DNA of 56,887 nucleotides from Candidatus Kaiserbacteria bacterium RIFCSPLOWO2_01_FULL_50_24. GTDB lineage: Bacteria > Patescibacteriota > Minisyncoccia > Phycocordibacterales > UBA2100. The position numbers were made by a program, and so were the translations under genes. This document shows positions 1,936 to 56,887 of this stretch, one piece after another. The stretch's first letter is position 1. The number at the start of each line of letters is the position of its first letter. The notes beneath the pieces are model-generated. The model did not search any database and was not told the DNA's origin. It worked only from the letters and a program-made list of their open reading frames with translations. The stretch lies in NCBI GenBank assembly GCA_001783335.1, contig MFLU01000015.1, positions 1 through 56,887 of the forward strand, read 5' to 3'.

Positions 1936-3507
1936 TTAGTGGCCGAAGAACCCCCGGCCAACCTGATCCGGAATCATGTACAATGCAACGCCGTGTTTTG
2001 CGCAAACGTCGATTGTGGCCTTATCCTTGACCGAACCGCTAGAAGTGAAGATGGCGGTAGTGCCAGCGTCGATGAGAGTCTGCGGTCCGTCCGTAAACGG
2101 AAAGAATGAATCGCTGTAGGCAACAGCGCCAGCGACATCATGACCGGAACGTTTGGCACGAGTGATGGCGAGTTGCGCAGCGCCAACACGATCCTGCTGT
2201 CCGACACCGTTGCCGATAAGCTGATTGTTCTTCACAAGCGTGAGCGTGTTGCTGTTTGAAGTTGAGCCGATTGCCCAAGCGAGCATCATGTCATATTCCT
2301 GCGCTGCCGTCGCTTTGCCATGCTTCACAATATGTCCACGATCAAAATCGGGAACGAACGTGTAGTTCGGCTGTGCCAAGAATCCGCCACGAACCCAGCG
2401 GAACCGCGGCGTCTGATCGAGATGGTCAACAAGCCCACTAAGCGCCGGATTCGCAACGAATCGGCACTTATCGCCTTTTCGGCGAAGCATTGCTATCGCA
2501 CCTGGAGTGAAAGCTGGAGCGACGACGCCGTCCAGCATTTTTCCGACAAGCGATTCGCTAAGTTCCTCGTCCACTTCGAAGCTAGTCATGACCAGTCCGC
2601 CAAAGATAGCGAGTGGGTCGCCGGACATCATCTTCTTCAGAACTTCTGCTCGATCCGGTCCGGCTGCCGCGCCGCACGGATTTCCGTGCTTTACACCAAC
2701 CGCGATTGCCGTACTACCACCTCCATTGACTGCATATACCTCGGCGATATGGGTCGCTGTCTGAAGCAGACGATCAACGTCAACCCAGTTGTTGTAGCTG
2801 GGAGACGTTCCCTGAACCACAACGAACTTGTCGAGAGCGAGTGGATCCTGTGAGTCAGTTGAATAGAGATGCGCAGGCGTCTGCCACGCGTTCTCACCGT
2901 ACTTGCAGGACACGACTCTTGAAGCGATAGTACCTTCAAACGCGCCACCACTATGGAACCACGCTGATTCCAAACAGTAATCAGCAACAATCGCTTCCGC
3001 TTTGGCCGCAAGTGTATTCCTGAACTCGACCTCGTCTTGCTGATCACTCTTAAGCCATTCGACGACACGCATTCGGTCAGCTGGATCAACGACTACAATA
3101 CGTCGACCCTTAGCTCCCGATCGGATGAGAGCCGGACCGCCGATGTCGGTTTGTTCGATAACCGACTCCCCTGTTGCGCCAGAGCGGCGCGTTTCCTCTT
3201 TGAGCGGATACAGGTCCACACAGACAAGATCGATCCACGGATAGCCCAATTGGCGGAGTTCTTCTCGATGTTCTTCTGCGGCAAGCAAGCCACCGTGGAC
3301 TTGCGGAACCAAAGTTACCACTCGATGACCAAGAATTGCAGGAAGCCCCGAAAGTTCGGCCACGTCAGTCACCGAAACTCCGGCTTCCCGCAATGTCTTC
3401 GCCGTTCCACCAGACGAGAAAATTCGCCAACCGAGAGCAACGAGTTCTTGGGCAAATTCGATAATGTCATTCTTGTGATACACAGACAACAACGCGTTTT
3501 TTTTCAT
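1936..3507 (-). CDS. purH: Bifunctional AICAR formyltransferase / IMP cyclohydrolase
   Basis: MGS-like N-domain ('SVYHKNDIIEFAQELV..SSGGTAK') plus AICARFT domain. Start chosen at MKKNALL, which has 'aaaggaaaa' upstream. Confidence 0.9.
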   Translation of the reverse strand: MKKNALLSVYHKNDIIEFAQELVALGWRIFSSGGTAKTLREAGVSVTDVAELSGLPAILGHRVVTLVPQVHGGLLAAEEHREELRQLGYPWIDLVCVDLYPLKEETRRSGATGESVIEQTDIGGPALIRSGAKGRRIVVVDPADRMRVVEWLKSDQQDEVEFRNTLAAKAEAIVADYCLESAWFHSGGAFEGTIASRVVSCKYGENAWQTPAHLYSTDSQDPLALDKFVVVQGTSPSYNNWVDVDRLLQTATHIAEVYAVNGGGSTAIAVGVKHGNPCGAAAGPDRAEVLKKMMSGDPLAIFGGLVMTSFEVDEELSESLVGKMLDGVVAPAFTPGAIAMLRRKGDKCRFVANPALSGLVDHLDQTPRFRWVRGGFLAQPNYTFVPDFDRGHIVKHGKATAAQEYDMMLAWAIGSTSNSNTLTLVKNNQLIGNGVGQQDRVGAAQLAITRAKRSGHDVAGAVAYSDSFFPFTDGPQTLIDAGTTAIFTSSGSVKDKATIDVCAKHGVALYMIPDQVGRGFFGH

Positions 3508-3537
3508 ACAGATTTTCCTTTCAATTATACACAACCC

Positions 3538-3721
3538 TAGAACACATCTCAAAATAAATGGCGTAGCGAGGCAGTTTCCGGTCGTGCGAACCGAAACCCT
3601 GGAGGACGAGGCGTATCGAGATACGGCGAGTCCAAAGGGCGAGGTGCAGCCGACCGGAAACCGTCGCAGTAGCCAAGCAGAGGTCTTTTATCATAGCGGT
3701 TTATTTTGAGATGGGTTCTAG
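3538..3721. promoter_or_regulatory. 184-nt rod-like imperfect hairpin in the purH leader (function unknown)
   Basis: 22-nt terminal arms 'ctagaacacatctcaaaataaa'/'tttattttgagatgggttctag' with 1 mismatch, an inner 11-bp stem 'gtttccggtcg'/'cgaccggaaac', and an apical 'cgtat-cgag-atacg'. Confidence 0.3.
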
Positions 3722-3825
3722 ATATCCACAGAAAAGACGTGCGTCCCGAGGTGGGACTCTCGTGAAAATAGTATAGTGTGATGTATGCTGGTTGTTATTA
3801 TTTAAAAATAATTCACATAAAAAGT

Positions 3826-5184
3826 ATGAAGAAATTCATTATCGGTGCATTGTGTGTTGTCGTATTCGCAACTGCCTCGCCAGCCGTGGCTCAAACCACC
3901 GCCACGACAACAGCCGCAGATGCCACTCGACAACAGATACAAGCCCTGCTTCAGCAGATACAAGAGCTCCAACAGCAGGTAAAGAAATTGTATCAACAGA
4001 GAAAGGACATGCGGCGAGATGACCATGTCTTTGCTACAACAACACACGCCGAAGAACCGGAAGACGAAGTAGATCCCGCCACGCAACAAAAGATAGATGA
4101 TCTGCTTCAGCAGATAAAGACGCTCCAACAGCAGATGGAGACGCTCAAACAGCAGATACGGGACTTGCGCCAAGAGCGGAAGGAAATATTAAAAGAGATT
4201 CGCGCATTGCTCAAGCTGGAGAGGCCGCTGGCGCGCGGTGCGAACGGAGAGGATGTGCGCATGCTTCAAGAGGCGCTTGCGACCGACCCGGACATCTATC
4301 CGGAGGGAGACACCAGCGGATTTTTCGGTCCGCTTACCGAGCGTGCCGTAAAACGTTTTCAAGAACGATTCGGTTTGGAACAGGTGGGAAATGTGGGTCC
4401 GCAAACGCGAGAGCATATCAATTACATTCTTGAGCACGGCGCGGGTGAATCCGGCAAAGTGCCGCCGGGGCTTCTCACGAGATTCAAGGGAATGTCAATG
4501 TTCGAGGGCATGTCGGAGGCGGCAAAGCTGCGCTGCGAGACGTGGGCATATATTCCTGAAGAACGTATCCCGTTCGGCATATTCGCTCGGTGCTATGAAA
4601 TAGATCCTGCCACTCAAGAAAAGATAGACCCGCTGATTCAACAGATAGAGGCGCTGCAGCAGCAAATACAAGCGATCCAACAGCAGATAAGAGACCTGCG
4701 CGGGCAGAAGAAGGAAATACGAAAAGAGATTCGTACAATAATAAAACTGGAGAGGCCGCTCCAGCATGGATCAGAAGGAGAGGATGTGCGCATGCTTCAA
4801 GAGGCGCTTGCGACCGACCCGGACATCTATCCGGAGGGAGATACCAGCGGACTATATGATTCGCATACTGAGCGTGCCGTAAAACGTTTCCAGGAACGTT
4901 TCGGCATGGAGCAGGTGGGAAATGTCGGTCCGCAAACGCGAGAGCATATCAATTACATTCTTGAGCACGGCGCAGGCAAATCCGGCAAAGTATCGTCAGG
5001 CCTTCTCATGAAATTCAAGGGAGAATCAACCTTCGAGAGTCTGTCGGAGGCGAAAAAAGCGCGTTGTAAAACGGGATCATATTTTAAATCCTCATCCGCA
5101 TCCGGCACATCCGGCAAAATCCCGTCCGGCATATTCGCCCAGTGCGACGACCCGGAATCGTCGCCGACAGACGAGGAGGAGTAA
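3826..5184 (+). CDS. Secreted coiled-coil protein with two peptidoglycan-binding (PG_binding_1-like) modules
   Basis: Signal peptide 'MKKFIIGALCVVVFATASPAVAQ', Q-rich heptad-like stretches, and a duplicated 'GEDVRMLQEALATDPDIYPEGDTSG..ERAVKRFQERFG'. Confidence 0.7.
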   Translation: MKKFIIGALCVVVFATASPAVAQTTATTTAADATRQQIQALLQQIQELQQQVKKLYQQRKDMRRDDHVFATTTHAEEPEDEVDPATQQKIDDLLQQIKTLQQQMETLKQQIRDLRQERKEILKEIRALLKLERPLARGANGEDVRMLQEALATDPDIYPEGDTSGFFGPLTERAVKRFQERFGLEQVGNVGPQTREHINYILEHGAGESGKVPPGLLTRFKGMSMFEGMSEAAKLRCETWAYIPEERIPFGIFARCYEIDPATQEKIDPLIQQIEALQQQIQAIQQQIRDLRGQKKEIRKEIRTIIKLERPLQHGSEGEDVRMLQEALATDPDIYPEGDTSGLYDSHTERAVKRFQERFGMEQVGNVGPQTREHINYILEHGAGKSGKVSSGLLMKFKGESTFESLSEAKKARCKTGSYFKSSSASGTSGKIPSGIFAQCDDPESSPTDEEE

Positions 5185-16685: not shown

Positions 16686-16708
16686 ATATCGACTTACGAA
16701 GTCGATAT
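16686..16708. repeat. TTACGAA-core palindromic element (copy 1)
   Basis: Perfect 'atatcgactt-acg-aagtcgatat'. Confidence 0.85.
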
Positions 16709-18173: not shown

Positions 18174-18208
18174 ATATCAACTTACGAAGTCGATATGTAA
18201 GTTGATAT
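18174..18208. repeat. TTACGAA-core palindromic element (copy 2, degenerate/duplicated arm)
   Basis: 'atatcaacttacgaagtcgatat' followed by 'gtaagttgatat'. Confidence 0.75.
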
Positions 18209-27556: not shown

Positions 27557-30500
27557 CTAGCTGGGAACGCACGCGGAGCCGTCCCAGTATTGGCCTGAAG
27601 AACAGCTTGAAGAACTTGATGTCGTGCTTGGCATGACGCAGTAATTACTACCACTGTCCCATGTGCCTCCCGCTGAAGAGCAGCTTGACTGCATGCTGGA
27701 ATAGTCCGTTGTGGAAGAACTTACACAGCTTGAACCATTCCAATACTGACCTGACGGACAGTCCGTAGTTGATGTGGTTACGCAACTTGAACCATTCCAG
27801 TACTGGCCTGATGAGCAGGACGTTGTTGAGGAGCTTACACAGCTTGAACCGTCCCAGTATTGTCCTGAAGAACAGCTGGAAGAACCTGATGTTGTGCTTG
27901 GCATGGCGCAGTAATTACTACCACTGTCCCATGTGCCTCCCGCTGAAGCGCAGCTTGACTGCTGACTTGAATAATCCGTGGTGGAAGAGGTTACGCATGC
28001 GCTTCCGCTCCAATACTGGCCCGAGGGACAAAGCGACGAACCGGCGGGTCCTTCATATCCTCCTGTCGTTGTAGAGGTCTGGCAAGAGGTTCCATTCCAC
28101 CACTGGCCTGAAGGACACGACGTGGTGCTTGATGTAGTGCTCTGGTAGTAACAATACGATGTGCCTCCAGAGCCCGTGCTTGTGTACCACTTGCAATTCG
28201 CTCCGCCGGCAGTACACGATGATTGTGTAGCATAATTCGCGCATGAGCCGTAATCACCGGAGCCTCCAGTTGTTGAGGTCACACAACTTGAACCATTCCA
28301 CCACTGACCTGAAGGACAAGAGGTGCTCGAAGTAGTAACCGGCATACAGGCATTGCTTTCCCAGCGGCATCCAGACATTCCGGTGCAACTCGATTGACTT
28401 GTGTACATACCGCAGCCGCCGCTCCAACCGCTTTCGCACTGCGACGGAGCACCGAGCGACACACCGCTCGTTGAGAACGCCGCGCCCGAAGAGCTTCCTA
28501 CGCGACAATTAACGTAATCGGACTCGCACCACACGGTGTGGCCGACATATGCACTATTCTTTGTCGCGTTCGTGTAGAAACATTTTTGCATACCACTCGC
28601 GCCGCCTACATTATCCGATTCCATATCGTCCATCTTGTCATAACAACCGGAGTCAGCTGGGTAGTCAACTTTGCCGTCACCGTCGTTGTCTTTACTGTCG
28701 GAGCACTGCGGCGTCCAATTGGTACTTGTAAGTGCGCAGTATCCGCCATATACACTGCCCCCCGACACCGCCGTCCATGAGCAGCCGCTTACCGCTTTAC
28801 ATGATGTCTCTGTAGAGTATCCACCGCATGTATCTCCTCCTGTGTATCCACAATCAGTTGGACAGGATTGTGTCGTTTCGCCCATTTCACACATGTTATT
28901 ACCGCACTTAGCCGCATCGGCATTGCCGGAACAATCCGGTATGCCAAAGTTTTGCCAGTTCGTCGCCGAATCGTTTCCCGCACCCGGTTTCCACGCAAAT
29001 TTCGCTTTTGGAATTTTCATGCACTGTGCCTCAACCGATTTGATGAAGTCCAGATATTCCGCATCGGTGCGGTCAAGTATTGAGGACGACTCACTACCAT
29101 CGGAAAACTTCCACGGGTGTTGAGTCCAGCTAGAGCTTCCTTCCCGCCTAACGTCCGTTGTTTGCCCGCGCTCGCATTGTTCTTTCGTCGTATACACGAA
29201 CGGATTGGAACAGCCAGAAGCGTTTTTTTGTACGCACTGTCCACCTACTCCTCCCGACGATTCGTATGTCCAACCGGTAAAGTAGGCCTGACAGGTTATT
29301 TGCGCATCTCCTTTTACACACTTGGAATAACCACCCACCCCCGCAGACGCCGAAAGGTCGCAGCGATACCCCGCACTGCACTGATATCCTTCTTTGCCGC
29401 CGCAGAATGTCTGGTCGGTCGGATGAAGCCGGTACCCCATGTCTATCTGGTCGGTGGGGAGCGCCACCCTCCCGTGCGCCTCGTCGTCACAGTAACCACC
29501 TTGGACATCTCTATACCAAACGCAACCGGAGGAACTACACGACGACTCACTGATATATCCACGACATTGCGTGCCGCCAATCTGCCTCTCGTATTCGCAC
29601 CGCGGCGTCATTTGACACCCGCGCGCATCATATTGATTTAGAATTCTTCCTCCAACGCAGAAATTGCTGAATGTCGCTGGCAGTTGTGGACATCCGGTCG
29701 GCGTTTGCTTTCCGTCTTGCGGTTGTATTCTTTCTGACATTTTCGGCACAAACTCCGCGGGTACGCGGAATGGAAACGCACCACCCGGCACTTCAAGCGA
29801 GCGGCCGTCTGCAAATTCGCAGCGCACCTTGCTCTTCAAGAATCCGCCGGTGAATGAGCACAATTGGCTGAATTCTGATGCGTTGTAAATGGTGAAGCCT
29901 CTCGCCACACTCCCCCCGTCTTCCTCTGCGGGCGCATAATAATCGTCTGGTAGGAAGTTTGGCGCTTTCTTTTCCTCTCGTCTGCCCTCTCTATATCCTT
30001 CCGCCATCCGAAGGCCGTTCTCGGCAATCTGGAGCGCCGCCTGTGCTTCGCCATATGCGCGACCAATGTCGCGATATTCAAGCGATGTGCGTGCGACACT
30101 CAATTTCCTCTCCGCGGTTGCGCGTGTTCGCTCTATCTCCTGAATTGCAGGGTCGAAGTGCCCGTCTTCAAACCCAACATCAAAGGGAAGCTTTGCAATA
30201 ACACCCTCAAGCCGCGTGAGAGCCGCCTGTGCCGCGTCAATGTTTTGGAGCGCGCGATCGGGCGACTCAAATACTTCCCGCCTATCGCTAAAAATCGTGC
30301 TGAAATCAAACGAGCGAGGCGCGTCCTCAAAGAACGTCTGATATTTTTGATATTCCCCTTCAAACTGCTGGAGGCGGTTTGCGTCTGTGGTGTTTTTTAC
30401 GCGCTCTTCTACGCGGCCGTATTGCGCGGCGCGCAATCCATCTAAGACGCCGCGCATGGAGGCCGCTATACCGGCATCGTTTCCAAACGAATTAAGCGCC

Positions 30501-31945
30501 GCTATGTCTTCGGGATGGTCCCCGGCAAGCGATTTGTATATCACCTCGCGCTGGCTAGCGTTTCGCGCGTTTTCTATGTCGCGCCTAATTTCTTCTGCGG
30601 CCTTCTGCTTCAACAAGTTGAAAAACTCTTTTTTGTCATCCGGGATGAGCGCACTCATCTCTTCCAAAACCGAGAGGGACTTAGCGTCGTGGAATCGCTC
30701 AATAGACGCGTTGAACTCCTGTTTCTGCGCCTCATTCGTGCCCGCTTCTTCAAACTTTTGCTTCAGCCCCTCGGTCGCCTGCGCACGCACGCGCTCTAAT
30801 CCCGCGAACACCCCTTCCGATACGTTGTTTTCTATCTCCTTCAAGACGCGCACGTTCTCCAGCGTCCCTCCTATAAGGTGGCTAAGGAATTTTTCTTTTT
30901 GCTCGGGTGTGAATGTGGAAAGTCGCTCTTCGGTTTTTGCGAGCACTTCTTCTTTAATACCCGCTACCATATCGCGCACCTCGTCTGAAACCGGACGCAC
31001 TTCAAGCTCATTAATGACTTCAAGATGGCGCACCTCGCTGCCACCGACATCCTTTACAAAGTCCGCGAAGGTCGCTTTTTGCGATTCATCTGCCTGCTCA
31101 AGCTGAACTTGGAGCTTTGAGAGCACGTTGTCTCCCGCGTTTTGTATCGCACTTTTTGCCTCAAGCGGAACCCGTTCGGCAATCTCTTTAAGCACCTCGG
31201 CATTTTTGAAGTGCTTGAACTCCGAGCCGCTCTGCTCATCTAAGACCGACACGAGCTGTTCGGATATCGTGTCCGAATCGCCAAGGGCAAACACCGCGCC
31301 GAATGTTTGCGCGGTCGCGCCGCGCGCGTCTTGTATCGTGTCAAACGCCTCCGAGGAAAGCGACCCATCAAAGGTGCCGAGCACTTTGTGATATTTCGTT
31401 ACGATGTCAAGAACGCTGTTTGCAAGTTCTTCCCGTTTTTCATCGGATAACCCGGATGCTTCGCGCACTTCTTTGTCCACTTTTGCAAGTTCCAGTTCGT
31501 AGTTTAGAAGTGCGCGCACTATGGTGTCTTCGCTTATCCCCCCGCGCTCCGCGAGCTCTTTTGCCTCAAGAAGTTTTTCCGCGGCGAACTGCAGTTTTAA
31601 CTCCGCTTGCGCCGCGGGGTCAAAGGTGAACACGCTCGTTACGCCGCGCCGCAAACTCTTGAATATATAGAGCGGATTGTTCGGAAGAAAGCCGAGGTTT
31701 TCTATGCCAAAATCCGTCGGCTGGTAATTTTCGTCAAGATTTATTTTTTCTGCCACGTCCACCTCCTGCGCCGCGGCAACCGCGGCGGCAACCGAGAGGG
31801 CGCGCAAATACTGCGAGTCGTTTTCGTTAAACTGGAAAATACCCGCGTGAGCGAATTGAGGATTAAATAAAAACGCCGCGACAAACAAAAGCGCGGCCGT
31901 GGTTGATAATAAAAAAAATGAATCACCTGTTCGGATTATATACAT
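27557..31945 (-). CDS. Giant (1462 aa) secreted protein: helical N-terminal region and Cys/Ser/Thr-rich C-terminal repeat array
   Basis: Signal/TM 'FFLLSTTAALLFVAAFLFNPQFAHA'. At least 9 copies of 'C[PS]SGQ[YW]W[NDS]GS[SA]CV', 'CGNNMCEMGETTQSCPTDCG', and a 270-nt DNA super-repeat at the 3' end. Confidence 0.8.
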   Translation of the reverse strand: MYIIRTGDSFFLLSTTAALLFVAAFLFNPQFAHAGIFQFNENDSQYLRALSVAAAVAAAQEVDVAEKINLDENYQPTDFGIENLGFLPNNPLYIFKSLRRGVTSVFTFDPAAQAELKLQFAAEKLLEAKELAERGGISEDTIVRALLNYELELAKVDKEVREASGLSDEKREELANSVLDIVTKYHKVLGTFDGSLSSEAFDTIQDARGATAQTFGAVFALGDSDTISEQLVSVLDEQSGSEFKHFKNAEVLKEIAERVPLEAKSAIQNAGDNVLSKLQVQLEQADESQKATFADFVKDVGGSEVRHLEVINELEVRPVSDEVRDMVAGIKEEVLAKTEERLSTFTPEQKEKFLSHLIGGTLENVRVLKEIENNVSEGVFAGLERVRAQATEGLKQKFEEAGTNEAQKQEFNASIERFHDAKSLSVLEEMSALIPDDKKEFFNLLKQKAAEEIRRDIENARNASQREVIYKSLAGDHPEDIAALNSFGNDAGIAASMRGVLDGLRAAQYGRVEERVKNTTDANRLQQFEGEYQKYQTFFEDAPRSFDFSTIFSDRREVFESPDRALQNIDAAQAALTRLEGVIAKLPFDVGFEDGHFDPAIQEIERTRATAERKLSVARTSLEYRDIGRAYGEAQAALQIAENGLRMAEGYREGRREEKKAPNFLPDDYYAPAEEDGGSVARGFTIYNASEFSQLCSFTGGFLKSKVRCEFADGRSLEVPGGAFPFRVPAEFVPKMSERIQPQDGKQTPTGCPQLPATFSNFCVGGRILNQYDARGCQMTPRCEYERQIGGTQCRGYISESSCSSSGCVWYRDVQGGYCDDEAHGRVALPTDQIDMGYRLHPTDQTFCGGKEGYQCSAGYRCDLSASAGVGGYSKCVKGDAQITCQAYFTGWTYESSGGVGGQCVQKNASGCSNPFVYTTKEQCERGQTTDVRREGSSSWTQHPWKFSDGSESSSILDRTDAEYLDFIKSVEAQCMKIPKAKFAWKPGAGNDSATNWQNFGIPDCSGNADAAKCGNNMCEMGETTQSCPTDCGYTGGDTCGGYSTETSCKAVSGCSWTAVSGGSVYGGYCALTSTNWTPQCSDSKDNDGDGKVDYPADSGCYDKMDDMESDNVGGASGMQKCFYTNATKNSAYVGHTVWCESDYVNCRVGSSSGAAFSTSGVSLGAPSQCESGWSGGCGMYTSQSSCTGMSGCRWESNACMPVTTSSTSCPSGQWWNGSSCVTSTTGGSGDYGSCANYATQSSCTAGGANCKWYTSTGSGGTSYCYYQSTTSSTTSCPSGQWWNGTSCQTSTTTGGYEGPAGSSLCPSGQYWSGSACVTSSTTDYSSQQSSCASAGGTWDSGSNYCAMPSTTSGSSSCSSGQYWDGSSCVSSSTTSCSSGQYWNGSSCVTTSTTDCPSGQYWNGSSCVSSSTTDYSSMQSSCSSAGGTWDSGSNYCVMPSTTSSSSSCSSGQYWDGSACVPS

Positions 31946-34221: not shown

Positions 34222-34286
34222 GTTCGCCTCCTTTTTGACCACTATTATCAAACTACTTTATACCACTCATGACCGAATATCACAAA

Positions 34287-34490
34287 TTAATTAAAAAGTA
34301 AAAATGAAAAGGTAAAAAGTACAGTTAAAAGTTAAAAATTACATCCCCATCGAGAGCACTCTTGATCCTAACTTTTAATTTTTCATGCCCCGTGCCAAAA
34401 TCTGCAAACGTGGTTTGAGCGCATAAAGAGGAATGGTGAGATTTTTGGTGCGGGGTCGTTTTTCATTTTTCGATTTTAGTTTTTAACTTA
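34287..34490 (+). repeat. AT-rich foldback element with conserved 68-nt core hairpin (copy 1, inverted copy at 44931-45140)
   Basis: About 200 nt aligns at roughly 90% identity to the reverse complement of 44931-45140. Core is at 34388-34455. Confidence 0.8.
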
Positions 34491-34564: not shown

Positions 34565-37222
34565 ATGCAAAATGTTTCCCTTCCGGCTGCCCCGTGGGCA
34601 TTGACGCCTGACGATGTGGCAAAGGCGCTTGAAACGAGCCGCGAGGGTCTCACCGAAAAAGAGGCCGAGGCGCGCTTAAAACACTTTGGTATGAATGCGC
34701 TTCCGCAAGGCAAAAAGCTCGACGCACTTGGTATTTTGGCACAGCAATTTAGAAGTCCCCTCATCTTCGTTCTCATCGCGGCAAGTGCCTTAACGATTGC
34801 GCTCGGCGAGTGGCTAGACACGGCGGTCATCGTTCTCACGATTTTCGTCAACGCGGGGCTCGGCTTTTACCAAGAGTTTCACGCAGAAAACGCGCTCCAA
34901 AAACTGAGCACCTATGTACGCGAGCGCACACGCGTTATACGCGATGAAATTGAACAGGAAATTGATTCGTCTCTTCTCGTTCCCGGCGATATACTCCGTC
35001 TTTCCTACGGCACACGCGTTCCCGCAGACGCGCGCGTGATAGAAAACAGCGGTTTGTCCGTTGATGAGTCAATTTTAACCGGCGAATCACTCCCCGTGGC
35101 AAAAAACGCTGATGTGATTTCTGAGGGTGCTCCGGTAGCCGAGCGCACCAACATGGTATTCGGCGGTACGCTCGTGGTAGAAGGATTCGCCACCGCCATC
35201 ACCTCGGCGACCGACGACCACATGGAGATAGGCCGCATTGCGGAATTGGTATCGGGAACATCACGCGAACGCACGCCCCTTCAATCGGCATTGTGGCGCC
35301 TCGCGTGGTTCATCTTTGGCGGACTCTTGATTCTCATCGCCGGTATTTTCATTCTCGGCATACTACGCGGAGAAGCGATACTGGAAATGCTCCTCATGGC
35401 GGCGGCAATATCCGTTGGCGCCATTCCATCGGCGCTCCCCATTGCACTCACCGTAATACTTGCAATGGGTGTCGTGCGCCTCGCGGCGCAAAAGGGCATC
35501 ATGCGTTCTCTCGCGGCGGCAGAAACACTCGGCAGTGCGACGGTCGTTATGACCGACAAGACAGGCACGCTCACGGAAGGAACCATGCGCCTCGTTGACG
35601 TACTCACTAAGGCGCGCCTCGTTCTACATAAAAAAGGAGAGGCATTGGGCGACAACGACGCGCGCTCTCCATCAGATACAACACATCTGAAGTGGCATAT
35701 GGGAGACGCTGAACGCGATATATTGGAGTCGGCAGTACTGGGAACCGACGTACTTATTGAAAATCCGTCTGAAAAACCAAGTGAATGGAAGTTCATAGGA
35801 CGTCCGCTTGAAACGAGTATTGTGGAGGCGGCACACCGGAGTGATATTGATGTCCGGCGCGATATGCGAAACCCCCCACTCTTGCCGTTCAGCTCCAGTC
35901 ATAAATTTTCCATTGTGTGCGGCCACGACGGAAAACACTGTATTGTGCTCGGCGCACCGGATGTATTGCTCGCACGATCCTCCATCTCAAAGGATGAGTA
36001 CATCGCGGCAATGAACGCCATACACGCGATAAGCGCGGAGGGCAAACGACTGGTCGGCGTTGCGAAGCTTCCGGAAGGCGCGACACACGCGCTCGTTAAA
36101 AAGGGCGTTGCAAAACCGGAAGACGCACAAGAGCTTTTGTTCCTCGGATTGCTCGTTATGCAAGACCCGGTGCGTAAGGAAGCGCGTGAAGCAATGGAAA
36201 AAATAGAGCACCTTGGCGCGCGCGTAGTGATGCTAACCGGCGATTTGAAGGGCACAGCAGAGGCTGTCGCACGTGAGCTTGGGTGGGAATTGAACGAGGG
36301 AAATACGCTCACGGGCGACGACTTGAAGCGGCTTTCCGACGAGGAGCTTTTGACGACTCTCCAAAACATCAAAATATTCGCTCGTGTAACGCCAGAGGAC
36401 AAATTACGCATCGGCTCGCTTTACAAAAAACAAGGCGAGGTCGTCGCCATGACTGGAGATGGCGTGAACGACGCGCCCTCTTTGAAGGCGGTTGATATCG
36501 GCATCGCGCTCGGGAGCGGCTCGGATGTGGCAAAAAGCACGAGCGACCTTGTGCTTTTGGACGACAACTTTAAAACCATTGTTGCCGCCATTGAAGAAGG
36601 GAGGCGCATACTTCAGAATATACGAAAATCGTTCACCTATTTGATGTCAAACTCACTTGACGAGGTGGCCTTGATAGGCGGAAGTTTGCTTGCGGGACTT
36701 CCCCTTCCCTTAACCGCGCTTCAGATAATCTGGGTCAACTTCATTACGGGGAGCTTGCCAGCCCTATCATTCGCGTTTGATAAGAACTTTGATGATAGTA
36801 AGAAACACGAACCGGTCTTGAACAGCGAGGTGCGATTTCTCACTATCGGCGTTGGTGTAGCAACGTCGGTACTCCTATTTATCCTGTACTGGGTATTGCT
36901 TCGCGCCGGCATAGCGCTTGAGGCGGCGCGTTCAATCATTTTCATATGCTTCGCGGCGTATATTCTTGTCGCGGCATACTCATTCAGGAGCTTACGCCGC
37001 CCGCTGTTCTCGTACCCAACGTTTGACAACAGGGCGCTAAACTGGAGCGTGGCGGCGGCAGGAGCACTCACAATACTGTCGGTCACGGCACCATTCCTCG
37101 GGTACGCGCTTGGAATCGCGATGCCGCGGATTGAGCTCCTATGGATAGTCGCCCTCTGGCTCGTCTTGAACGTCGCCGTTATTGAAGCGGCGAAGTGGGG
37201 ATTTAGAAAATTCAAAATGTAA
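34565..37222 (+). CDS. P-type cation-transporting ATPase (type II, Ca2+/Mg2+-like)
   Basis: 'DKTGTLT', 'TGDGVNDAPSLK', 'TGES', about 10 TM segments. Confidence 0.95.
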   Translation: MQNVSLPAAPWALTPDDVAKALETSREGLTEKEAEARLKHFGMNALPQGKKLDALGILAQQFRSPLIFVLIAASALTIALGEWLDTAVIVLTIFVNAGLGFYQEFHAENALQKLSTYVRERTRVIRDEIEQEIDSSLLVPGDILRLSYGTRVPADARVIENSGLSVDESILTGESLPVAKNADVISEGAPVAERTNMVFGGTLVVEGFATAITSATDDHMEIGRIAELVSGTSRERTPLQSALWRLAWFIFGGLLILIAGIFILGILRGEAILEMLLMAAAISVGAIPSALPIALTVILAMGVVRLAAQKGIMRSLAAAETLGSATVVMTDKTGTLTEGTMRLVDVLTKARLVLHKKGEALGDNDARSPSDTTHLKWHMGDAERDILESAVLGTDVLIENPSEKPSEWKFIGRPLETSIVEAAHRSDIDVRRDMRNPPLLPFSSSHKFSIVCGHDGKHCIVLGAPDVLLARSSISKDEYIAAMNAIHAISAEGKRLVGVAKLPEGATHALVKKGVAKPEDAQELLFLGLLVMQDPVRKEAREAMEKIEHLGARVVMLTGDLKGTAEAVARELGWELNEGNTLTGDDLKRLSDEELLTTLQNIKIFARVTPEDKLRIGSLYKKQGEVVAMTGDGVNDAPSLKAVDIGIALGSGSDVAKSTSDLVLLDDNFKTIVAAIEEGRRILQNIRKSFTYLMSNSLDEVALIGGSLLAGLPLPLTALQIIWVNFITGSLPALSFAFDKNFDDSKKHEPVLNSEVRFLTIGVGVATSVLLFILYWVLLRAGIALEAARSIIFICFAAYILVAAYSFRSLRRPLFSYPTFDNRALNWSVAAAGALTILSVTAPFLGYALGIAMPRIELLWIVALWLVLNVAVIEAAKWGFRKFKM

Positions 37223-37332
37223 ATATCAAAATGAAAAATGACAATGTAAAATTCAAAATAGTTTTCATTCGAACGATGGTGGATATTTTTACATTTTAAA
37301 TTGTGATTTTGAGTTTTAAATTTTTACATTTC
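37205..37332. repeat. AT-rich foldback element overlapping the ATPase stop codon
   Basis: Arms are built of 'aaaatgtaaa'/'tttacatttt' words around 'agttttcattcgaacgatggtgg'. Confidence 0.55.
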
Positions 37333-37350
37333 CACTTCTGACCAAAAACC

Positions 37351-38862: not shown

Positions 38863-39663
38863 ATGACATTCCTTGAGAGCATCCTGCTTGGCATCGTAGA
38901 GGGCGCAACGGAGTTTTTGCCGATTTCTTCCACGGGGCACTTGATTTTGGCGAGCTCGGTGCTTGGGCTTCCGCACACCGAATTTTTGAAAAGTTTTGAG
39001 ATTGCGATACAACTGGGCGCGATTGCATCTGTAGTTGTTTTATACTGGCGTTCCTTTTTGGATATTGAGCTTCTGAAGCGGCTTGCGGCAGCTTTTATTC
39101 CGACAGGTATTTTGGGCTTTCTACTCTATCCATACGTTAAAGAATATTTGATGGGCAACATGGCGGTCGTCTTGTGGGCGCTGGCGCTCGGCGGCATCGC
39201 CCTTATTATCTTTGAGCGGTGGCACCGCGAACTCCCCTGTTCGACTTACGAAGTCGAACATGGTGGTAAGCCGGTTGGATGCGATGTACGGGATATTACG
39301 TACCAACAATCCGTGTTTATCGGCCTCTTTCAGACACTCGCAATGGTGCCCGGTGTTTCGCGCTCCGGCGCCACAATAATTGGCGGACTTCTCCTTGGGC
39401 TTCGCCGCACGGTGATTGTTGAGTTCTCGTTCTTGCTCGCCGTTCCCACCATGCTCGCGGCAACGGGTTATGATATGTACAAAAATGCCGGCGTGTTTGC
39501 CGCCGACCAATTTCTTTTGCTCGTTGTTGGATTTATCACCTCATTCATCGTCGCGATGTTCGCCATCAAGTGGCTCTTGCGCTTCGTGCAAACGCATTCG
39601 TTCACATCCTTCGGCGTATACCGCCTTCTTCTAGTACTCGTATTCATACTGTTCGTCCTGTGA
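38863..39663 (+). CDS. uppP: Undecaprenyl-diphosphate phosphatase
   Basis: 'GIVEGATEFLPISSTGHL' and 'PGVSRSGATI' BacA motifs. Confidence 0.9.
   Translation: MTFLESILLGIVEGATEFLPISSTGHLILASSVLGLPHTEFLKSFEIAIQLGAIASVVVLYWRSFLDIELLKRLAAAFIPTGILGFLLYPYVKEYLMGNMAVVLWALALGGIALIIFERWHRELPCSTYEVEHGGKPVGCDVRDITYQQSVFIGLFQTLAMVPGVSRSGATIIGGLLLGLRRTVIVEFSFLLAVPTMLAATGYDMYKNAGVFAADQFLLLVVGFITSFIVAMFAIKWLLRFVQTHSFTSFGVYRLLLVLVFILFVL
39238..39260. repeat. TTACGAA-core palindromic element inside the uppP CDS (in frame)
   Basis: 'tgttcgactt-acg-aagtcgaaca' encodes 'CSTYEVEH'. Confidence 0.8.
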
Positions 39664-39680
39664 GGTAGAGTGATATGATA

Positions 39681-39843
39681 CAAAAGTAAAAGTTAAAAAT
39701 GAAAATCTAAAAACGACAAGGTAAAATTAAAAATTAAGCATATAGCTCAGCATACTCAGTTCTGGTCTTAGAACCACAAAAGAGAAGATAACTTTTAATT
39801 TTTAGTTGTACTTTTTAGTTTTTCATTTTTACTTTTTAATTTG
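39681..39843. repeat. AT-rich foldback element (arms related to 34287-34490, different core)
   Basis: The reverse complement of the right arm, 'caaattaaaaagtaaaaatgaaaaactaaaaagtaca..', closely matches the left arm of the 34287 element. Confidence 0.6.
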
Positions 39844-39847
39844 TATT

Positions 39848-40030
39848 ATGAAGCGCTTCATGCTCTTGACTCTACTTCTCCTGTCGCTCCCGATACTTTT
39901 GCATGTATATCAGCCGGAGTGGCGACTCGGCGGCCTTGGGCTTCTCTTCGGCACGATCGGCTACACCATCTCCCCTATTATTTTGTTTGTGATTTTGCTT
40001 AGGTACATTTGGAAGGCCTGGTGGTATTAG
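39848..40030 (+). CDS. Small two-TM membrane protein (hypothetical)
   Basis: 'MKRFMLLTLLLLSLPILL..GLLFGTIGYTISPIILFVILL'. Confidence 0.3.
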   Translation: MKRFMLLTLLLLSLPILLHVYQPEWRLGGLGLLFGTIGYTISPIILFVILLRYIWKAWWY

Positions 40031-40073: not shown

Positions 40074-40098
40074 CATATCGACTTACGAAGTCGATATG
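40074..40098. repeat. TTACGAA-core palindromic element (copy 4)
   Basis: 'catatcgactt-acg-aagtcgatatg'. Confidence 0.85.
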
Positions 40099-41694: not shown

Positions 41695-41717
41695 ATATCG
41701 ACTTACGAAGTCGATAT
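41695..41717. repeat. TTACGAA-core palindromic element (copy 6)
   Basis: 'atatcgactt-acg-aagtcgatat'. Confidence 0.85.
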
Positions 41718-41760
41718 AGTACACAAAGAAGCCATGAAAATAGCGCTAATATCGACTTAC

Positions 41761-41910
41761 TGGCGACGTAGAGCGAGTAAAGTGCAAAAGAGCTTTTTTG
41801 CACTTTCGAGCCGAGGAGCCAGAAACCGGCGTAAACGTGATTGCGCTTTTGCGCAAGGAGTGCATTCCGACCCACAGGGTTAACGCCCTGTGGTGTCGGA
41901 ATGAGCCGGT
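41761..41910 (-). mobile_element. Structured MITE-like insertion (copy A) splitting a TTACGAA palindrome, TTAC duplicated
   Basis: Left half 'atatcgacTTAC' (41749-41760) and right half 'TTACgaagtcgatat' (41911-41925) flank 150 nt. These contain the closing stem 'aaccggc/gccggtt', the 'ttccgacaccacaggg..ccctgtgggtcggaa' hairpin, and 'ttgcgc-aaaa-gcgcaa'. Confidence 0.6.
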
Positions 41911-41936
41911 TTACGAAGTCGATATATTTTATTTTG

Positions 41937-44238: not shown

Positions 44239-44937
44239 ATGGCTCACGCGCACAGATGGAACAGGGGAAAACTTATTGTGGTAGACGGCTCGGATGGGGT
44301 CGGTAAGGGCACGCAGGTGGCGCTTCTGGTGAAGCGCCTAAAAAAAGACAGAGTGCGCGTGAAGACAATGGACTTCCCGCAGTATGAGAAGAATTTTTGC
44401 GGCGCGCTTATACGACGATGCCTTTCCGGAACATTTGGAAATTTTCTCAATACAGACCCGTATATCGCTTCCATCCTCTACGCCGCCGACCGTTTTGAAT
44501 CAAAGACAACGCTTGAGAAATGGCTCGCGGAAGGATACATCGTGATTCTTGACCGATACGTCAGCGCAAACCAAATGCACCAAGGAGGGAAAATAAAAAA
44601 CGCGCGCGAGCGTAAAAAATTTCTCGCGTGGCTTGACACACTTGAGCACAAGGCACTCGGTATCCCCCGCCCCGATTTAGTGCTCTATCTCCACCTCCCC
44701 GTTCCGATTTCGCTGAAACTCCTGAAAGAGCGCCGGCGCACGCACGCACGGAGAAAGAAACTTGACCTAGCAGAGCGCAATCGCCGCCACCTTGAAAACA
44801 CGCAAAAAACCGCAATTCAATTTCTGCGCAAAAATCCGCAGTGGAAGAAAATCACTTGCTTTAATCGGAAAGTAGTTCTGTCTCGTGAGAGAATACATGA
44901 AATGGTATATGAGATGGTTAAACAAACGCTTAATTAA
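44239..44937 (+). CDS. tmk: Thymidylate kinase
   Basis: 'IVVDGSDGVGKGTQ' P-loop and 'DRY' motif context. Confidence 0.9.
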   Translation: MAHAHRWNRGKLIVVDGSDGVGKGTQVALLVKRLKKDRVRVKTMDFPQYEKNFCGALIRRCLSGTFGNFLNTDPYIASILYAADRFESKTTLEKWLAEGYIVILDRYVSANQMHQGGKIKNARERKKFLAWLDTLEHKALGIPRPDLVLYLHLPVPISLKLLKERRRTHARRKKLDLAERNRRHLENTQKTAIQFLRKNPQWKKITCFNRKVVLSRERIHEMVYEMVKQTLN

Positions 44938-45140
44938 AAACTAAAAGCGAAAAATGAAAAACGACCCCGCACCAAAAATCTCACCGTTCCTCTTTATGCG
45001 CTCAAGCCACGTTCGCAGATTTTGGTACGGGGCATGCATGAAAAATTAAAAGTTAGGCCAAAGTGTACACTCAACGGGAATGTAATTTTTAACTTTTAAC
45101 TATAATTTTTAACTTTTCATTTTTACTTTTTAACTTATCC
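44931..45140 (-). repeat. AT-rich foldback element with conserved core hairpin (copy 2, inverted)
   Basis: The reverse complement aligns with 34287-34490. Core is at 44965-45032. It overlaps the tmk stop codon and ends 4 nt before glyA. Confidence 0.8.
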
Positions 45141-51221: not shown

Positions 51222-51623
51222 TTATCCTATTGAAAACGCCCCTGCCCCTATCCCCCACCTGTATGAGCTCTCCTTTGACTTCACAAGCTCATGTAAACCC
51301 AGCACCTTTCAGACACCACAGGGCGTTAAACCCTGTGGGTCTGAAATCCACATGCACCCTGCGCCAGAGAGCGCAGGGCATTATAAGGTGCTGGGTAAAT
51401 ACCTTTCGGCAGTTGGGTCGGAAACGCCAAGCAGAGTCTCAACGTCATTATTCGTAATCTCTCCCTTCTCGCGCGCAAACGCGAGAACACGTTCAACGTT
51501 TTGTTTTCTCTGTCTTGTGCGTGCTTCATTTACTTTCGGCATGCCACTTTGTTTTTTCCGCCCAAAGTACATACCGAGCGCCACACCAACAATTCCCGCT
51601 GCAATCAGATATAGGTACTCCAT
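51222..51623 (-). pseudogene. Small membrane-anchored wHTH protein interrupted near its 3' end by the 98-nt element (current ORF 51381..51623)
   Basis: TM 'LYLIAAGIVGVALGMYF' plus HTH 'ITNNDVETLLGVSDPTAERYL'. Removing 102 nt (element plus one TSD) restores '..RYLHELVKSKESSYRWGIGAGAFSIG*'. Confidence 0.55.
51297..51394 (+). mobile_element. Structured MITE-like insertion (copy B) with GTAA target-site duplication
   Basis: Closing stem 'cccagcacc/ggtgctggg', hairpin 'ttcagacaccacaggg-cgttaaa-ccctgtgggtctgaa', hairpin 'ccctgcgc-cagaga-gcgcaggg'. 'gtaa' is present at both 51293-51296 and 51395-51398. Confidence 0.7.
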
Positions 51624-54891: not shown

Positions 54892-55925
54892 TTAGGAGAA
54901 TTCCAACATTTTCTGCCGTAGTTTCTTCGCATTCCCATGCCCCAGTAGCCCAACATACGACTGTACGATCTGGTTATCCTCTTCAAGCCCAGTAGCGCGC
55001 TTCAACATCCGTCGCTTTGTAGTCGTCCGCAGTACGCGGTGCCGCGGAAAGTGCACCCAGCCGAGAAAATCCACACCACTCGCGAATGTTTTGATAAACA
55101 CCTTATCCGGATGCAATTCAAGTTTCAGTTGTTCGTGCAAAAATATGGCGATACGCCGACGCATTGACTCGAGTAGTTGTTTGTCATGTGAGAGAACAAC
55201 AAAATCGTCTGCATAACGAATGTAGTATTTCGCTTTCAGTGTGTGTTTTGCGAATTGGTCAAACTCGTTCATGTAGACATTGACGAGCAGTTGCGAGGTA
55301 AGATTGCCGAGCGGGAGCCCTGTGCTTAATGTGCCAGAATTGAAACTTCCAACAATTCCCGCAATGAGCTGAAGCGTGCGCCTGTCGGAAATGTAGTGCC
55401 GAATAATACTCATGAGAATCGTGTGATCAATGGAAGCAAAAAACTTGCGGATATCGCACTTTAAGATATGACAAGTTTTTTTGTTGTTCCGTGACACTCT
55501 AAACGCAAACTGCCGGAAACGATTCATCGCCCTATGCGTGCCCTTCCCCTTCCTGCACGAATACGAGTCGGCAATGAACGTGCGATCAAAGAATGGGTAA
55601 AGTATGCGGTGGAGCGCGTGGTGTACCACACGGTCGCGCGCCATCGCCTTGTGGATATCGCGCGGTTTCGGATCGCTTATCCTGAAGTGCTTGTACGCGC
55701 CATGCTTGTATGTGCCCGCCGCGAGTTCGCGATGGAGCGCGAGAATGTTGTCCATAAGCCGATGCTGAAACTCCTGCACGTCATCTTTGCCGCGCTTTCC
55801 TCGCACGAATTCTTTCCACGCCGCGAGCAAGTTTTCAACAGAAATGATATCCTCGTATGTATGAGCGAGCAGAATTCTCTTAGAGTAACCCCCCCCCCCG
55901 ACGGAATTTGCCTGTTATAGAACAT
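54892..55925 (-). CDS. DGR reverse transcriptase, with ATG (55925) and RT body in different frames across a G11 tract
   Basis: 'LPLGNLTSQLLVNVY' (DGR hallmark [IL]GxxxSQ) and 'YIRYADDFVVL'. The body frame is open back to 55913 but has no ATG/GTG/TTG before the TTG at 55830, which cuts the conserved 'EDIISVENLLAAW' helix. Confidence 0.85.
55889..55899. repeat. C11 (G11 on the RT strand) homopolymer
   Basis: Counted directly: 'taaCCCCCCCCCCCgacgg'. It lies inside the RT 5' coding region and 9 nt upstream of the avd TTG. Confidence 0.95.
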
Positions 55926-56264
55926 ATCAAGAAACTATACCGCGCATGGCTGCCAATTCGTCGCAATATGCCACGCAGTGAGCGTTTCGGAATCGGCGGA
56001 AAGATTGATGTGCTTCTTCTCGATGTGGCAGAATTGTTGCGTTTCGCTTCATTCTCTCGCACGGATGAGAAAGTCCCGCTACTAGGCAGGGCCATTGTGA
56101 AAATAGATTCCCTACGGTTTTTTGTTCAGTTAGCGTGGGAGACCAAACTCATCCCAGATAAACAATTTGAAGAGCTTGCTATTCTTATTGAAGAGATCGG
56201 CCGTATGACGGGCGGCTGGCATAAAGGACTTCTATCGAAAGCCCCACTCAACAAAGAGCGTTGA
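55908..56264 (+). CDS. avd: DGR accessory variability determinant (Avd, four-helix-bundle protein)
   Basis: 'MPRSERFGIGGKID', 'LRFFVQLAWETKLI', 'IEEIGRMTGGWHKG' (Avd-type iGkmlGGW). TTG start, 118 aa. Confidence 0.75.
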   Translation: MPVIEHIKKLYRAWLPIRRNMPRSERFGIGGKIDVLLLDVAELLRFASFSRTDEKVPLLGRAIVKIDSLRFFVQLAWETKLIPDKQFEELAILIEEIGRMTGGWHKGLLSKAPLNKER

Positions 56265-56282
56265 GCGGGGAAAGCGTAGGGT

Positions 56283-56394
56283 AGCGGGAAACGAACTCGT
56301 TGCCTGCATTCCAGCTGTTCGGGTTGGAGGGCGAGTAGGCCTCGACGTTCCAGCCATCGTCGTTCCAGTTGGCGTTCAGAGCCCAGAGCACGTT
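56283..56394 (-). repeat. DGR template repeat (TR)
   Basis: 112 nt matching 56713-56824. It has 25 A on the minus strand, 18 of them substituted in the VR. It reads AAC-rich codons (NANWNDDGWNVEAY..NSWNAGNE). Confidence 0.85.
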
Positions 56395-56632
56395 AATGCG
56401 CAAAACCATCCATATCGCTATCACTGCGGTTCGAATACTCTAATCCGCTGTATCTGATTTGGGACATAAAAGTCCACCAGTTTTGCACACCGATCCTATT
56501 TCTTTTTTGTGAGCGCCCTTCGGGCACGCTCGCGCGCGGCGTACCATTCACGATTCTGTCCCGAAGATGCCCGAGGGGCTGCGCGAGAGCCGTAGCCTTC
56601 GCGCCAGAGCGCTCCTTGTGTATCACTATATC

Positions 56633-56685
56633 AAAAAATCGACCCTTCAATTTCCTGCCAAAGTGGCAAAAAATCAAAGGGTCGA
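56633..56685 (-). terminator. Branched hairpin plus T6 downstream of the DGR target gene
   Basis: Outer stem 'tcgaccctt'/'aagggtcga', inner 'tgcca-aag-tggca', T6 on the minus strand. It starts about 25 nt after the target stop. Confidence 0.5.
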
Positions 56686-56710
56686 AAAGTCTAGAGCAAA
56701 GTTTTTAGGA

Positions 56711-56887
56711 TCAGCGGGAAACGAACCCGCGGCCTGCATCCCAGCGGAACGGGTTGGAGGGCGAGAGGGCCTCGACGAACCAGCCACCGCCGCTCCAGAG
56801 GGCGCCCAGAGCCCAGAGCACGCTGTTGCCGTCGTTGTCCTTGACGAGGACGTAACCAGCCGTCCACGTAAGATTGCCGACAGCTTG
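56711..56887 (-). CDS. DGR target protein, C-terminal 58 aa only (5' end outside window)
   Basis: The minus frame from the window edge reads 'QAVGNLTWTAGYVLVKDNDGNSVLWALGALWSGGGWFVEALSPSNPFRWDAGRGFVSR*'. The '..GFV/R' ending is typical of CLec/FGE-like DGR targets. Confidence 0.75.
   Translation of the reverse strand, partial: QAVGNLTWTAGYVLVKDNDGNSVLWALGALWSGGGWFVEALSPSNPFRWDAGRGFVSR
56713..56824 (-). repeat. DGR variable repeat (VR) at the C-terminus of the target gene
   Basis: Same register as the TR. There are 19 mismatches, 18 at TR adenines. Confidence 0.85.

Follow-up and report, generated by a model that had tools for sequence, protein, structure and literature searches.

Short two-hairpin elements with an IS200/IS605-type layout in a Kaiserbacteria contig, one of which interrupts a winged helix-turn-helix gene

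A 102-nt Element Interrupts a Small Winged Helix-Turn-Helix Gene

We analyzed a 56,887-nt stretch of DNA (the window; contig MFLU01000015.1 of assembly GCA_001783335.1) from Candidatus Kaiserbacteria bacterium RIFCSPLOWO2_01_FULL_50_24, in which a small, non-coding, strongly folding element, copy B, lies within a minus-strand gene for a winged helix-turn-helix (wHTH) protein and a second copy, copy A, lies on the opposite strand. Both belong to a family of short repeats whose layout and insertion sites point to single-strand transposition of the IS200/IS605 type. The initial annotation of the window had described copy B as a 98-nt core between direct GTAA repeats (51293-51296 and 51395-51398), and its coordinates and sequence were as claimed; the repeat extends by one further nucleotide to GTAAA (51293-97 and 51395-99). 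The features of the locus are as follows.

51381-51623, minus strand: truncated host gene, 80 aa, with an N-terminal hydrophobic helix and a helix-turn-helix; the last four codons and the stop are element-derived
51222-51292, minus strand: 3' remainder of the host gene, displaced by the element, with 23 codons and a stop, open and in frame once 102 nt are removed
51395-51399, minus strand: target pentanucleotide TTTAC, host sequence, inside codons TAT-TTA-C of an R-Y-L motif
51293-51394, minus strand: element copy B, 102 nt, whose top strand is the minus strand and reads CCAGCACC...GGGTTTAC
51385-51394, minus strand: 5' arm of the closing stem (CCAGCACCTT), pairing with 51298-51308 (AAGGTGCTGGG); specific to the subfamily of copy B
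51379-51382, minus strand: left-end guide AATG, immediately 5' of hairpin 2, which pairs with target TTAC by the IS608 rule
51357-51378, minus strand: hairpin 2 (H2, left subterminal), CCCTGCGC-TCTCTG-GCGCAGGG, from fold and covariation
51307-51346, minus strand: hairpin 1 (H1, right subterminal), with a 9-bp upper stem, a bulged T and a lower stem; 56.4 bits against the family model
51324-51327, minus strand: AACG in the H1 loop, immediately 5' of CCCTGTGG; putative guide at the right end, for the terminal TTAC
51293-51297, minus strand: element-borne 3' terminus TTTAC, the predicted right cleavage site

As sequenced, the product of the host gene ends ...TAERYLPSTL (80 aa). Deletion of the 102 nt fuses ...TAERYL with HELVKSKESSYRWGIGAGAFSIG and a stop at 51222-51224, giving a protein of 99 aa that ends ...TAERYLHELVKSKESSYRWGIGAGAFSIG; the frame restoration proposed in the initial annotation is therefore borne out, with a C-terminus that is homologous to those of related proteins. 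A profile search with the 80-aa product identified 417 homologues at E<=0.001, mostly 95-106 aa in length, which match the query to about residue 77, where the insertion lies, and extend some 22 residues past it rather than ending at RYLPSTL. The restored tail is equal in length to the C-termini of the homologues and in the alignment follows their pattern L-x-E-L-x-K ... G ... G ..., while deviating at several conserved positions. Copy B is inserted 3' of TTTAC within codons 75-77 of the 99-aa gene, in an R-Y-L motif that is nearly invariant among the homologues, and replaces the last 23 residues with PSTL and a stop. Based on the Pfam placement of the host-gene family among winged helix-turn-helix domains (HTH_24, DeoR-like, DUF977), the hydrophobic N-terminal helix and the tail that is removed, copy B deprives a small, membrane-anchored wHTH protein of its wing. 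What looks like a pseudogene-like truncation in the genome of a groundwater bacterium of the candidate phyla radiation (CPR) can in this way be explained as an insertion that may be reversible. A word-indexed search of a protein collection for the uninterrupted 99-aa allele matched only the 80-aa protein of the window itself.

The boundaries of copy B are supported by a near-identical copy with other flanks (L097), and in metagenome contigs they are set by loose contig ends at 51293 and 51399. Folded as a single strand, copy B has a free energy of -37.6 kcal/mol (z = -8.8 relative to dinucleotide shuffles). In addition to its near-twin L097, copy B has relatives in Moranbacteria (L028, L064, and L158), and its closing stem is common to all four; such a terminal stem (11 bp in copy B) is confined to the subfamily designated B/B2. 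A 41-nt mini-element, CCAGCACCTTGAACGCCCTGCGGTCAAGGTGCTGGGTTTAT, bordered on its left by TTTAC, was observed at about 2866-2911 of L056 and also in L081 and L091; it keeps just the closing stem of the copy B subfamily, the guide AACG and one hairpin arm. In L056 a full element directly follows the terminal TTTAT of the mini-element.

Copy A Lies in the Loop of a Repeated Palindrome

Copy A is the sole other copy in the window: a covariance-model search for hairpin 1 with the filters off had two matches, copies A and B, and the hairpin-1 pattern has 0.00 expected occurrences in shuffles. Its features are as follows.

41761-41914, plus strand: element copy A, 154 nt, TGGCGACG...GCCGGTTTAC
41834-41837, plus strand: guide AACG
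41841-41856, plus strand: decayed hairpin 2
41864-41902, plus strand: hairpin 1
41749-41760, plus strand: 5' half of a host palindrome (ATATCGACTTAC), with target TTAC at its end; the 3' half (GAAGTCGATAT) occupies 41915-41925

With copy A in place, the site reads ATATCGACTTAC / TGGCG...GCCGGTTTAC / GAAGTCGATAT, so that copy A splits the palindrome 3' of the TTAC in its loop and itself ends in TTAC. The same intergenic palindrome, ATATCGAC-TTACGAA-GTCGATAT, is intact at 16686-16708, 18174-18196, 40075-40097, and 41695-41717, and these four sites serve as an in-window comparison with the empty site: copy A inserted in the loop of a fifth copy of the palindrome, and its left hairpin has decayed since. 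Variants of the palindrome are found at 39235 and 42204. The orientation of the loop is constant, and the palindrome may be a terminator or a site resembling a repetitive extragenic palindrome (REP).

Copy A also folds strongly as a single strand (-52.6 kcal/mol, z = -9.9 relative to dinucleotide shuffles). In the lower stem of H1, copies A and B differ by a compensatory change, an A-T pair in one against a C-G pair in the other, which had been pointed out in the initial annotation and is real. Relatives of copy A that are approximately 90% identical occur in metagenome-assembled genomes (MAGs) labelled Kaiserbacteria and Saccharibacteria, and in these the closing stem changes compensatorily, from AAACCGGC/GCCGGTTT to AAACTGGC/GCCAGTTT.

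A Multi-Phylum Family with a Shared Two-Hairpin Layout

Additional copies were gathered by the pattern of the H1 stem, scanned once over species-representative genomes and once over metagenome contigs. The initial view of a small, mobile, structure-constrained element that interrupts the wHTH gene is supported. The family is previously undescribed and spans several phyla, comprising about 120 true loci, of which about 85 are independent insertions, each of 95-170 nt. The hosts are Nitrospirota/Thermodesulfovibrionales (with several copies per genome), Parcubacteria, Saccharibacteria, Moranbacteria, Kaiserbacteria, and Bacteroidales, and further copies were identified in peat, sediment, and groundwater metagenomes. 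Nearly all copies other than copy B are intergenic. GC skew was uninformative on the strand of the element, viral contigs scanned for H1 and H2 contained unrelated hairpins only, and a full-text search of the literature by hairpin sequence returned only unrelated primers.

On one strand, the layout consists of host T-T-N-A-Y, the left boundary, a short leader, a 4-nt guide, H2, a linker, H1, a spacer of 8-13 nt (longer where an extra hairpin has been inserted) and the terminus TTTAC or, less often, TTTAT. Both hairpins are found in all copies, with H2 always upstream of H1. The H2 consensus is CCCYGYGS-TCT(C)TG-SCRCRGGG, and that of H1 is CCCACAGGG-TNAAYG-CCCTGTGG, followed by a bulged T and then G and a 3-bp lower stem; a covariance-model search added a few diverged H1 hairpins. 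Among 42 distinct H2 sequences, 87.6% of the cells pair and five of the nine pairs have changed on both sides (50 cells), with the observed covariation score reached in none of 500 shuffles. The three pairs of the H1 lower stem, which are outside the search pattern, are paired in 95-98% of cases as compared to 54-91% in shuffles, with A-T/G-C/T-A and G-C/C-G/T-A/A-T as the alternatives.

In the source metagenomes the contig depth over H1 is 68-151, relative to flanking values of 3-11, and contig breaks fall within the element. The analysis supplies a sequence and structure model with which to annotate these repeats, which disrupt metagenome assemblies, with a 10-fold depth spike and contig ends in the element.

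Two other short repeat families share a CCCACAGGGT...ACCCTGTGGTG stem, with different loops and flanks. Their loci are L092, L119, L128, L132, and L136 for one set and L122, L137, and L151 for the other, and an example is AGAGTTTATTCCGATTTGCT...AAATCGGAATAATGTTTA, which has terminal inverted repeats. In one Parcubacteria contig (L033, 1-7500) a 23S rRNA gene is split by a group I intron and a large insertion and is followed by 5S rRNA; a copy of the element is just downstream of these rRNA genes.

Insertion Without Duplication and a Guide That Matches the Target

Both window copies are at GTAA/TTAC, as initially noted. The further reading, that these flanks are the target-site duplication of a MITE (miniature inverted-repeat transposable element) and would recur at other copies, was not supported: TTAC borders both copies in the window, and elsewhere the left flank is mostly TTTAT, TTCAT, or TTGAT. 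From the window copies alone, with TTAC on both sides, duplication could not be judged. Left flanks in the family as a whole read TTTAT, ATTAT, TTGAT, TTCAT, or T(T)TAC and the right terminus almost always TTTAC, the base after the right TTTA being C or T without exception, so that in most insertions the two differ (TTAT or TCAT versus TTAC). This usual mismatch between the left flank and the TTTAC carried by the element means that the two are not a target-site duplication. The polarity is also uniform, with T-T-N-A-Y on the H2 side, on the same strand, at all 70 insertions with a usable boundary, and most subfamilies are without terminal inverted repeats. In head-to-tail tandems (L111, L162, and L056) the terminal TTTAC/T of the upstream copy serves as the target of the next.

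The known system with which these sites can be compared is IS608, which inserts 3' of TTAC, has subterminal imperfect palindromes with an extrahelical T at both ends and is cleaved at 19 nt from the left hairpin, on its 5' side, and at 10 nt from the right hairpin, on its 3' side (PMC3201880). Four bases 5' of the hairpin foot recognize the cleavage tetranucleotide, the stated pairs being G-35:C-3 and A-34:T-4, with A-2 unpaired (PMC3201880); therefore guide base 1 pairs with target position t-3 and guide base 2 with t-4. We infer the pairing of guide base 4 with t-1 from the published sequences AAAG/TTAC and GAAT/TCAA. When this register (g1:t-3, g2:t-4, g4:t-1) was applied to the four bases directly 5' of H2, guides and targets corresponded as follows.

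Guide AACA, AATA, or AAAA, target TTAT: about 40 insertions, in subfamilies C, D, E2, and B2
Guide GACA, target TCAT: 9 of 10 insertions in subfamilies F and G
Guide AATG, target TTAC: copy B and L097
Guide AACG, target TTAC: copy A, two other loci and the 41-nt mini-element
Guide TACA or TATA, targets TGAT (6), TTAT (4), and TAAT (1): T tolerating G, T, or A

All three positions match in 55 of the 70 insertions (193 of 210 positional matches). When guides were permuted among subfamilies, none of 20,000 permutations reached 55, single positions having p values of approximately 0.001-0.002, and no other of the 24 possible mappings scores as well as the IS608 register. Guide and target also switch together within subfamilies, as in B (AATG, TTTAC) compared with B2 (AATA, TTTAT), and in G (GACA, TTCAT) compared with the L127 variant (AACA, TTTAT). 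The family thus provides a natural covariation record of the IS608 rule, in which the guide reads the target, at work in uncultured CPR bacteria and Nitrospirota, with subfamilies retargeted via one-base changes in the guide.

The Right End and Its Apparently Permuted Hairpin

H1 and H2 share an 8-bp duplex, CCCTGTGG paired with CCACAGGG, with opposite connectivity. The loop of H1 ends with AAYG directly 5' of CCCTGTGG, which is the order of guide and hairpin arm at the left end, and AANG is what the IS608 rule predicts for TTAC. The loop ends with AAYG in 76 of 84 copies and with AATA in five, all five of which terminate in TTAT. Scored as last loop base and last terminal base in the 84 de-duplicated right ends, the combinations are G/C in 66, G/T in 10, A/T in five and A/C in none, and the five A/T ends come from at least two lineages (B2 and L088/L103). 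It is reasonable to suppose, short of proof, that the right-end guide is the AAYG of the H1 loop and that H1 is a circular permutation of the H2 module.

Whether this layout (a permuted right hairpin, a CCCTGYGG/CCRCAGGG duplex, an extrahelical T and an AAYG guide closed within a loop) is new for IS200/IS605 elements we regard as a possibility on the doubtful side. If it is, it would imply either a clade of Y1 transposases, perhaps hosted by CPR bacteria, able to read a guide embedded in a loop, or double constraint on the right end, as a DNA site and as the scaffold of a guide RNA. The family spans phyla and includes reduced CPR genomes, and a genuine loop guide would widen the substrate geometry of Y1 HUH transposases, enzymes of interest as programmable integrases of single-stranded DNA.

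Probable Mobilization by a Y1 Transposase Supplied in Trans

The guide-target covariation is our main ground for placing the family within the Y1 HUH single-strand "peel and paste" mode of transposition, and the elements in the window are probably non-autonomous, IS200/IS605-type transposons that are moved in trans by a Y1 HUH transposase. By analogy with IS608, the enzyme would bind both hairpins in single-stranded DNA, and the guide 5' of H2 would base-pair with the left cleavage/target tetranucleotide and so read it. The top strand would leave as a circle, with the donor resealed precisely, and the circle would integrate 3' of a matching tetranucleotide, without duplication. This mechanism predicts seamless excision, i.e., restoration of the frame, and precise excision of copy B would accordingly be expected to restore the host gene.

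Features held in common with IS608 and ISDra2 are a single insertion polarity and no duplication, with insertion 3' of TTAC or of a tetra- or pentanucleotide related to it, subterminal hairpins with an extrahelical T at both ends, a 4-nt guide 5' of the left hairpin that pairs with the target in the same register, and a right cleavage site inside the element, some 10-17 nt 3' of the hairpin. In contrast to those insertion sequences, the elements described here are 95-170 nt in length and without tnpA or tnpB, their hairpins share a duplex with opposite connectivity, the third guide base is C or T and not A, the right terminus is the target consensus TTAC and not TCAA, and there is no guide 5' of the foot of the right hairpin, where the loop AAYG is the candidate. 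They also resemble the palindrome-associated transposable elements (PATEs) of haloarchaea and Geobacillus, short non-coding derivatives with IS200/IS605-type ends that are presumed to be mobilized in trans (PMC3119063, PMC4810608, PMC10055086). This likeness is one of layout; unlike PATEs, the elements here have no known parent insertion sequence with matching ends, and their hosts are CPR bacteria, Nitrospirota, and Bacteroidales. The lack of duplication, the single polarity, the scarcity of terminal inverted repeats and the guide pairing make "PATE-like, IS200/IS605-type" a better name than classical MITE.

Small folding repeats in coding genes are also known from Rickettsia, where the Rickettsia palindromic elements are inserted in frame and translated. 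Like these and like MITEs located in genes, copy B is a small, strongly folding repeat inside a protein-coding gene; in contrast to the Rickettsia elements, it brings a stop after four residues and truncates the protein.

Several observations weigh against mobilization by a trans-acting Y1 enzyme with a guide at each end. Searches of the window and of 1.09 Mb of flanking sequence turned up no Y1 transposase other than two RAYT-like genes, no TnpB and no full-length element having these ends, and the insertions show no orientation bias relative to neighboring open reading frames (ORFs). Both window insertions recur, identical in sequence and fixed, in ten related contigs that come from groundwater and soil samples of the Rifle type, the CPR MAGs GCA_001783485.1 and GCA_001779655.1 among them, and the excised allele, or empty-site joint, was not seen in the assembled contigs of four groundwater or soil metagenome runs, contigs being assemblies from which rare variants drop out. 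Both copies look fixed, and copy A has begun decaying. The constancy of H1 is partly a matter of ascertainment, its exact pattern having been used for collection, and left boundaries were inferred from the subfamily consensus. At the right end, the tetranucleotide 5' of the H1 foot is variable and departs from AANG, which the IS608 right-end rule would require for TTAC, and the idea of a loop guide is founded on just two independent lineages with a G-to-A/C-to-T change.

The search for a mobilizing enzyme included phmmer comparisons of three queries (an IS608 TnpA sequence, used as a lead only, the Y1_Tnp protein of L013 and the IscB of L084) with all ORFs of the 1.09 Mb, and these identified no partner for the elements; the search for a transposase with matching termini, suggested in the initial annotation, was thus negative over this sequence and the window. 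Clustering of the ORFs neighboring the copies found no recurrent transposase, and a regular-expression search for left-end modules without a nearby H1 found no full-length element. In L084 (2590-4440) an IscB gene (443 aa, 2801-4132, minus strand) and a HEARO RNA (4164-4405, minus strand, 124.6 bits) lie tail-to-tail against a copy of the element, with the junction ...TTTATTTAC / TTGATTCTCC. The left flank of this IscB element, TTGAT, is the target of the abutting element subfamily, and therefore IS200/IS605-superfamily elements with the same target motif exist in at least one host.

Alternative Explanations

The best-surviving alternative is that the hairpins act as RNA, the element being a mobile small-RNA gene such as an omega-RNA-type scaffold, read out from the right end, for a nuclease of the TnpB or IscB kind that would take its guide from the 3' flank; DNA transposition could go on alongside. 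In IS200/IS605 elements the right end contributes to the guide RNA of TnpB, and the transposon-adjacent motif equals the motif at the target (PMC8612924, PMC10055086). The retention of H1 and its loop while the remainder of the element diverges, the covariation of both hairpins and the copy directly beside the IscB/HEARO element with the same TTGAT flank are all consistent with an RNA. Single-strand DNA hairpins account for the covariation equally well, however, and no TnpB or IscB adjoins the other ~84 copies. At gathering thresholds no Rfam 15 match overlapped the elements in the window and 14 loci, and at E<=10 both copies had chance-level hits only, so that the earlier suggestion of a possible RNA is without support. 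We consider this explanation unlikely.

Somewhat less probable again is that the elements are REP- or REPIN-like repeats, spread and maintained by a single-copy, domesticated Y1 transposase of the RAYT type. REP/BIME/REPIN repeats resemble the elements in having GC-rich imperfect hairpins with a conserved 5' tetranucleotide and are thought to be handled by a Y1 enzyme. In two Nitrospirota loci, a Y1_Tnp protein with a DnaA-C-like helix-turn-helix tail (Pfam E = 5e-8) is encoded 2-4.5 kb from a copy (L013, minus-strand coordinates 1844-2852; L043, 4510-5485). These genes are flanked by their own unrelated inverted repeats and not by H1 or H2, and no RAYT-like gene was found at the remaining loci. 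The L013 gene has the inverted repeat GGGGACGTTGCCAA / TTGGCAACGTCCCC, and that of L043 seemingly lies between direct repeats of about 40 nt derived from the 3' end of a host gene. The elements also differ from REPs in their defined ends, two-hairpin unit and guide-matched targets, and REPs are not known to insert 3' of a tetranucleotide that matches a guide.

A third alternative is a classical MITE descended from a DDE transposon, with terminal inverted repeats bound by a transposase and staggered cuts that duplicate a target of 3-5 bp (TTA, TTAC, or TTTAC). In its favor, the 11-bp terminal inverted repeat of copy B is bounded by identical GTAAA on both sides, TTAC is likewise found on both sides of copy A, and most copies allow a TTA repeat of 3 nt to be read. 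This explanation does not extend to the family, in most subfamilies of which terminal inverted repeats are absent and the left flank is mostly unlike the right terminus beyond TTA, with that terminus restricted to C or T after TTTA. Moreover, a symmetric transposase would be expected to produce a non-palindromic duplication in both polarities, in contrast to the 70 of 70 observed in one, and covariation between a flank and an internal tetranucleotide has no place in the model. We judge a DDE origin to be quite improbable, and the MITE with a target-site duplication gives way to the single polarity, the differing left flanks and the internal guide pairing. An intron-like insert, removed from RNA so that the gene would still yield its 99-aa protein, would suit the exact 102-nt restoration of frame, the open 23 downstream codons and the fixation of the insertion in all sampled strains, but is very hard to credit for a 102-nt element, which is far below the size of self-splicing group I or II introns, has no ribozyme or intron match in Rfam, is nearly always intergenic in its other copies and is followed by a tail that deviates at family-conserved residues as relaxed selection would give.

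Other Features of the Window

The window also contains a diversity-generating retroelement at 54892-56829, with a reverse transcriptase (54892-55875, minus strand) and bAvd (55968-56264, plus strand). Its template and variable repeats form a pair of 117 nt (56283-56399 and 56713-56829) in which 18 of 21 mismatches are at T on the plus strand, corresponding to A on the minus strand, an adenine-specific pattern. AT-rich intergenic repeats of 100-200 nt with AAAAGT/AAAATG-like units are located at 34286-34490, 37202-37344, 39682-39849, and 44930-45138; pairs of these are up to 95% complementary over 103 nt, and they represent a family unrelated to the element. Long genes with internal repeats are present at 3778-5184 and 27557-31945, the former with Q/L-rich units in a 21-nt phase together with a duplication of 531 nt (3922-4896) and the latter with 57-nt tandem units at 27707-28319.

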